Shown here in pieces: positions 10,671 to 10,839 of a stretch of DNA of 10,916 nucleotides (the stretch's first letter is position 1; each line of letters starts with the position of its first letter). Position numbers and translations under genes: made by a program. Source of the DNA: Escherichia coli (GTDB lineage: Bacteria; Pseudomonadota; Gammaproteobacteria; Enterobacterales; Enterobacteriaceae); the NCBI RefSeq assembly GCF_003334385.1, contig NZ_QOWN01000067.1. The stretch is one strand, 5' to 3'. The notes under the pieces are model-generated. The model was not told the DNA's origin and did not search any database. It saw only the letters and a program-made list of their open reading frames with translations.

Positions 10671-10839
10671 GGAATAAAATTGTTTCCAATAGACATTTTT
10701 AACATGTTGTTTTTCTAAGTGTTATAAGGTAGGTATAAAATGGGATGGAGCCTCTGCTTCTGGCATGTGTCGGTCAGAATGACTCATGATGTGGTCTGCT
10801 ATTATTGACATCCTCACTGCCCTAAAGGATGGGGATTTC

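Follow-up and report, generated by a model that had tools for sequence, protein, structure and literature searches.

The short frame between fecI and IS1F in Escherichia coli is ykiE, a reportedly translated and probably young ORF

The window analysed here, a stretch of 10,916 nucleotides of Escherichia coli DNA (contig NZ_QOWN01000067.1 of assembly GCF_003334385.1), carries a tiny frame with a conspicuous ribosome-binding site in the spacer between fecI and a copy of IS1. This raises the question of whether the frame is a chance ORF, the remnant of a gene that IS1 disrupted, or a gene in its own right. The frame was noticed in a reading of the sequence alone, and it is real: a 22-codon ATG frame is present on the plus strand, and the region 10725-10808 reads taAGGTAGGtataaaATG followed by a 22-residue peptide and TGA (Table 1; from 10720 onward the window reads ...gtgttatAAGGTAGGTataaaATGGGATGG...). 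It is not new, being ykiE, a small-protein gene already annotated in K-12. The ykiE annotation is at the identical position in MG1655, GE3 and 06_3235, and 22 of 22 residues are identical to the window ORF in all three. The MG1655 gene is b4801 (YP_010051215.1; 4518372-4518440), located between fecI (b4293) and IS1F, and the same peptide is also listed as WP_211180522.1 and as UniProt YKIE_ECOLI. Window coordinates equal those of MG1655 minus 4,507,632, a conversion that is valid for fecI, ykiE and IS1F. The Shine-Dalgarno sequence (SD) and the placement between fecI and IS1F are likewise identical to those of K-12; the ORF shows no difference, and in the upstream spacer two positions (10637 and 10672) carry SNPs relative to MG1655. 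An exact-sequence look-up of the peptide returns 'protein YkiE' / YKIE_ECOLI, in Shigella sonnei too, on at least 999 contigs, and when the spacer was compared by megablast with a set of 5,426 complete E. coli genomes, the feature beneath the match was annotated 'ykiE: protein YkiE'. The spacer is present in 2,755 of these genomes, ykiE is annotated in about half of the complete genomes, and a query of the spacer plus the IS1F end is at least 80% covered in 2,597. That an established gene could be picked out by reading the letters only is reassuring as a sanity check; what is new here is only the comparison of its two alleles and the coincidence of an RNA 3' end with a stem.

Table 1. Features of the fecI-IS1F spacer and its surroundings, in window coordinates.
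Feature	Coordinates	Strand	Basis
fecI, ECF sigma factor of the ferric citrate system, divergent neighbour	10082..10603	-	ORF list, RefSeq annotation
Fur-binding region, fecIR promoter	10628..10672		Fur EMSA 45-mer maps with 2 mismatches
Promoter-like site	10652-10624	-	Promoter scan; presumably fecI promoter
Promoter-like site TTAATA, 16 nt, TACAAT	10641-10668	+	Promoter scan; candidate ykiE promoter
Second candidate ykiE promoter TTAACA, 18 nt, TGtTATAAG (extended -10)	10699..10728	+	By eye
Shine-Dalgarno-like AAGGTAGGT	10726..10734	+	Last G 6 nt before ATG; anti-SD duplex -9.7 kcal/mol
ykiE coding sequence	10740..10808	+	ORF list; 22 codons, ATG start, TGA end
RNA stem-loop	10798..10847	+	Predicted fold -18.4 kcal/mol, z -3.1
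IS1F left end, terminal inverted repeat; runs off window	10840..10916	+	MG1655 mobile element 4518472-4519239
Promoter-like site in IS1F	10847-10874	+	Promoter scan
insA GTG start in IS1F	10895	+	Motif position

The size of the frame is ordinary, and eight ORFs of at least 20 codons in the ORF list overlap 10300-10916. Read off the sequence, the peptide has a high content of Cys, His and Trp; it matches no NCBIfam family, Rfam gives no match in 10550-10916, and YkiE is labelled nonTM and nonCDD in Table S4 of PMC11188072. A 43-codon TTG frame on the minus strand (10722-10853) starts inside the IS1F inverted repeat and runs out of the element, antisense over the whole of ykiE; it crosses the junction, so it is IS1F-dependent, and it is probably a chance frame. 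Under the usual E. coli y-gene naming scheme, the name ykiE would denote a map position near 0-10 min. The gene actually lies at 4.518 Mb (about 97 min), and the name looks misassigned.

Translation of ykiE is reported in the literature. Later papers credit its discovery, and its validation by western blot with an SPA tag, to Weaver et al. 2019. RiboReport includes it among 31 western-blot-validated sORFs from translation-initiation-site profiling, with 21 smORFer reads and a DeepRibo rank of 45 from ordinary Ribo-seq (PMC8921622), and Adams et al. describe it as 'experimentally validated but uncharacterized' (PMC7815308). Ribosome profiling had been proposed as a check on the frame, and occupancy is already on record: Table S4 of 'The Cryptic Bacterial Microproteome' gives TIS 45 and RPF 38 reads in retapamulin data (PMC11188072). 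The screen in the Weaver et al. preprint selected candidates with more than 5 rpm at the start (Onc112 or retapamulin) and more than 8 rpkm in untreated cells, followed by visual inspection and then a chromosomal SPA tag; the text of the preprint mentions neither ykiE, fecI nor insA. Were ykiE purely a chance ORF that is not truly translated, the profiling and tag signals would have to be spurious, arising from ribosomes that the antibiotics trap or from stabilisation of the product by the tag. Weaver et al. caution that, under Onc112 and retapamulin, ribosomes may be driven to sites that they do not normally use, and the reads are few in both RiboReport (21) and Table S4 (45 and 38). However, candidates passed the footprint filter in untreated cells, ykiE is among those listed as validated by western blot of a chromosomally tagged product, the DeepRibo rank of 45 came from ordinary Ribo-seq (PMC8921622), and the SD is very strong, such that we consider an untranslated frame extremely unlikely. 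The sequence-only reading had favoured a chance ORF or a remnant; the former does not hold if it means an untranslated ORF, in view of the published start-site and footprint reads and the western listing, but its low expectation of function is retained.

The ribosome-binding site is as good as had been suspected. For every ATG, GTG and TTG on either strand of the window, the preceding 17 nt were scored against the 3' end of 16S rRNA, and the -9.7 kcal/mol duplex of ykiE is matched by only 0.5% of the 966 start codons (1.3% of ATGs). The best SD among the long ORF starts scored is about -5.9 kcal/mol, with fecR at about -5.9, fecA at about -5.5 and fecI positive. This strong SD beside an ATG is the sole feature of the frame that is above chance.

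Two candidate promoters could direct transcription of ykiE. One lies within the Fur site of the fecIR promoter, a region represented by a 45-mer upstream of fecIR that binds Fur by EMSA (PMC2928814), and iron regulation of ykiE is conceivable on this account. The other is closer to the frame; its transcription start would be near 10735, which would exclude the SD from the mRNA. We note that the two SNPs are the only differences between the window and MG1655 in the spacer and that both fall within the 45-bp Fur-binding oligomer; SNPs in the Fur-binding region raised fec expression in the bladder-adapted E. coli 83972 (PMC2928814).

One alternative is that YkiE is a functional small protein that acts in trans, perhaps in iron or ferric citrate uptake, and is expressed divergently from fecI from the promoter inside the Fur site. 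The reported detection of the protein (PMC7815308, PMC8921622), the plus-strand promoter-like site within the Fur EMSA 45-mer (10641-10668), the Cys/His/Trp-rich composition, and the fact that ykiE travels with the fec module in both E. coli and plasmids all speak for it. In rich medium, however, Fur should repress a promoter inside the Fur site. The cells profiled when the protein was detected had been grown in such a medium (Weaver et al. preprint), and the peptide has no family or motif match. The allelic variation described below also bears on this alternative.

Within E. coli, the 87 nt spanning the SD and ORF are unchanged in 2,586 of 2,757 records (94%), a sameness that may point to constraint but that the very low diversity of a recently spread island accounts for equally well; the published values for ykiE are dN 9.3e-5 and dS 0 (PMC11188072 Table S4). 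The variants retrieved from E. coli are mostly damaging. In UID2309220033, W8 is replaced by a stop and the gene is annotated with an 'internal stop', and in TUM9757 a 4-nt duplication shifts the frame to give a 29-aa product; these nonsense and frameshift alleles occur in clinical strains in which fecI and fecR are annotated intact. EC190486 and ETEC1746 share R13K together with an A-to-G change in the SD, and EC190486 also has a synonymous change at C20. The R13K allele is common, being found on at least 1,000 contigs.

A second allele is seen on plasmids, where the spacer occurs in 1,281 records, mainly from Klebsiella, at about 94% identity. The three plasmids examined, from Klebsiella, Citrobacter and Enterobacter (about 94-96% DNA identity), retain the SD and ATG. 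The Klebsiella-type allele has just 16 codons (MGWILCFWHLSVRMTS) and departs from the 22-codon allele through the substitutions S4I and V10L and an additional A following codon 15, which amounts to two non-synonymous changes, no synonymous change and one frameshift. In a tblastn search of 72,556 plasmids with the peptide, 973 match residues 1-15 only, with 13/15 identities, and 21-22 match over the full length. The sequence TGACATC is common to the Klebsiella allele and to Citrobacter, one of the more divergent loci described below, and because of this the 22-codon form looks like the derivative; the E. coli form seems to have arisen from the 16-codon form by a 1-nt deletion. MG1655 and the Klebsiella-type allele differ at only 2 of 136 upstream positions and by two substitutions and one indel in the 69-nt ORF, and thus the ORF is conserved no better than the promoter region. 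A test for purifying selection, which looked for a frame and residues kept across relatives and for an excess of synonymous over non-synonymous changes, was negative for ykiE, the informative substitutions being a tiny sample.

At greater divergence the ORF is missing: the three fec loci L007, L008 and L009 lack either the start codon or the whole region. In Klebsiella plasmid CP030314 the start is removed by a 13-nt gap, Citrobacter sp. Cu233 has AGG where the ATG would be and no plus-strand ORF there, and in Enterobacter cloacae DSM 26481 the similarity ends just past the Fur box. A scan of genome contigs with an invariant 28-mer of the Fur box yielded two loci, which show loss of the frame but are too few for a phylogeny. 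As to the check on conservation of the frame that had been proposed for this junction, the sequence is identical in most E. coli records (2,586/2,757), but the frame is not conserved beyond DNA of about 94% identity. This lack of conservation and the broken alleles in E. coli fit the low expectation of function. They also weigh against a peptide acting in trans: the main plasmid allele has the C-terminal third replaced or lost, nonsense and frameshift alleles occur in clinical strains with fecI and fecR annotated intact, the ORF is missing from the three divergent loci, every substitution between the alleles alters the protein, and the published dS is 0. We regard this alternative as quite unlikely.

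The reading that we favour, with a probability of roughly 0.6, is that ykiE is a young ORF that is translated at a low level and whose peptide has no selected function. The AT-rich spacer upstream of fecI would be transcribed weakly in the direction away from fecI, and the strong SD 6 nt before the ATG would draw ribosomes to make a 22-residue peptide of low abundance. In evolutionary terms this is most likely a recent by-product, the output of a proto-gene. Its start codon and SD would be confined to a single shallow fec lineage, in which the 22-codon form presumably arose by a 1-nt deletion in the 16-codon form and broken alleles persist in natural strains. What the comparison adds is modest: it suggests a shallow, lineage-restricted frame that has a frameshifted sister allele and naturally broken copies, and on that basis YkiE serves reasonably well to illustrate a translated proto-gene, as opposed to a regulator of ferric citrate uptake. 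The poorly conserved sORFs of Weaver et al. 2019, such as YsgD and YadW, are similar to ykiE in that they are short, intergenic, without motifs and of low abundance, with essentially no divergence within Escherichia and hence no usable dN/dS signal. Unlike these, ykiE resides on a horizontally acquired, IS-bounded fec island and has a second, frameshifted allele on Klebsiella-type plasmids. Some counterpoints can be raised against a proto-gene. The Klebsiella-type allele likewise retains the SD and ATG, which could reflect constraint, a stop codon inside a predicted stem-loop with an RNA 3' end at its base suits a cis-regulatory role, and the candidate promoter inside the Fur site would allow for iron regulation.

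The stem-loop spans the end of ykiE and the tip of IS1F. In its predicted outer stem GC-AUUAUUGA, which contains the last ykiE codons including UGA, pairs with UC-GGUAAUGC, containing the first 8 nt of IS1F, such that the UGA stop (10806-10808) is itself paired; the inner stem is what remains of a decayed 18-bp palindrome. A Term-seq 3' end at MG1655 4518479 (Adams et al., PMC7815308) corresponds to window 10847, the final paired base of the predicted stem. This match between a mapped 3' end and a stem built from the last ykiE codons and the IS1F tip is a small but testable detail. The 3' end is weak, with about 1,600 reads, a Rho score of 1.3 that is not significant and an intrinsic terminator score of 1.99 (below 3), and coverage is higher downstream of it than upstream (PMC7815308). 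Trimming, and not termination, is what it seems to reflect.

The palindrome is intact in the Klebsiella-type plasmids, where a perfect 18-bp palindrome lies downstream of ykiE (TTGACATCCTCCCCGCCC-TTTA-GGGCGGGGAGGATGTCAA; -40.9 kcal/mol, z -9.5). In Klebsiella plasmid CP041100 (L004:2703-2742) it has a 4-nt loop and is equivalent to window 10804-10839. There is one copy per plasmid and a T-tract on neither strand; a terminator, a protein site and a module boundary are candidate roles. In Enterobacter plasmid CP058158 the hairpin has been removed by a 46-nt deletion. In E. coli the palindrome has decayed and IS1F abuts its right arm. The arrangement of ORF and structure is not conserved between the two types, in that the Klebsiella-type stop lies outside the hairpin, about 19 nt before it in the 16-codon allele, and the outer stem in E. 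coli needs IS1F bases.

A further alternative is that ykiE acts in cis as an upstream ORF, in which the act of translation would count and the peptide would not. Terminating ribosomes would cover the left arm of the structure at 10798-10847 and block the stem-loop, thereby altering the balance between ending or trimming of outside transcription at IS1F nucleotide 8 and read-through into insA. Adams et al. list ykiE-insA-7 as a potential uORF with a 3' end less than 200 nt downstream, the entry being tagged 'uORF' and lying 48 nt before insA-7 (PMC7815308). The 3' end at the last paired base, the pairing of the UGA, and the retention of the start and SD while the peptide sequence drifts are in accord with such a role. 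Known uORFs and leader peptides (mdtU-mdtJI in Adams et al. 2021; thrL and hisL) share with ykiE a short translated ORF with its stop in a stem-loop, which for ykiE is a predicted one, and a mapped RNA 3' end where that stem closes. Unlike them, the ykiE stem has no U-tract or Rho signal and a terminator score below threshold, the other allele does not keep the geometry of ORF and hairpin, and what lies downstream in place of a true 'gene' is an IS1 copy that is defective. The weakness of the 3' end (about 1,600 reads, Rho 1.3, terminator 1.99, higher coverage downstream) is a further objection, and the outer stem is owed solely to IS1F chancing to abut the spacer. Moreover, a stop some 19 nt short of the hairpin gives no coupling in the 16-codon allele, and the insA start, 86 nt from the ykiE stop, precludes translational coupling. 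With IS1F defective both in K-12, where insB7 is a pseudogene, and in GE3, there is also little to regulate, and we judge a cis-acting role unlikely. A combined version, with ykiE newborn and its translation melting the part-IS1F stem-loop so as to set the amount of iron-responsive transcription entering IS1F from the Fur site, seems to us very unlikely; if true, it would tie iron status to the expression or mobility of an IS that bounds the fec island.

Other RNA 3' ends are seen nearby within fecI, on the minus strand at 10592 and 10516 (MG1655 4518224 and 4518148), 11 and 87 nt past the start codon. They were mapped in different growth conditions with read counts well above those of the ykiE 3' end (Adams et al., PMC7815308), and may reflect premature termination or processing of the fecIR leader.

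The relationship of the frame to IS1F is also informative about its origin. The IS1 terminus GGTAATGCTGCC starts at 10840, 31 bp beyond the ykiE stop, in agreement with the roughly 30 bp given in the sequence-only reading. In MG1655 the element contains insA7 and the pseudogene insB7, and it is defective in both K-12 and GE3. IS1F is not flanked by a target-site duplication: the left flank is GGGGATTTC, and on the right GE3 has TCCTCCCGA and MG1655 has GACCATGTT (flanks taken at window 10840, L001:3989-4010 and L003:5235-5255), with the neighbours to the right differing between these two strains. Sequence from the right of the Klebsiella hairpin was sought beyond IS1F in E. coli and was not found. 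The lack of a target-site duplication and the loss of the hairpin flank across IS1F indicate that the border of the fec island was rearranged here and that IS1F did not simply insert.

The sequence-only reading had also allowed for a remnant of whatever the IS1 insertion disrupted. In a wider form of this idea, the frame would be the surviving 5' part of a longer gene that was lost through the IS1F insertion or had decayed before it. The surroundings are full of IS fragments and pseudogenes, and the missing target-site duplication does imply rearrangement at the junction. Nonetheless, alleles free of IS1 have a shorter frame of 16 codons followed by a hairpin and not a longer ORF, and IS1F is found in the hairpin's right arm, 31 bp after the frame has ended. 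The tblastn search of 72,556 plasmids finds the peptide in about one place per record and never within a larger match, and the taxon profile and record counts equal those of the fec-spacer matches. A remnant of an IS1-disrupted gene is not supported by these comparisons, and we give a remnant of any kind hardly any credence.

Two strains, TUM9757 and UID2309220033 (L010:1310-1330 and L012:1305-1325), are without IS1F but retain its first 7 nt, GGTAATG, joined to sequence 78 bp past the right end of IS1F in GE3. They were considered as ancestral empty sites and rejected, since 7 nt of IS1F are left and 78 bp of the right flank are missing, which points to secondary deletions; both strains also have broken ykiE alleles. 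In the porcine ETEC strain ETEC1746 (L013:680-1200) the fecI annotation indicates a frameshift, and to the right of IS1F the sequence differs again, consisting of a phosphoethanolamine transferase fragment and an integrase. At its other end, the window is unrelated to GE3 over positions 1-76, whereas everything from 77 on matches that strain except for three SNPs. The break falls inside an IS66-family (ISEc23) transposase gene that reaches 1042 in GE3, and this position within the gene indicates that the IS copy is truncated or rearranged in the strain from which the window derives.
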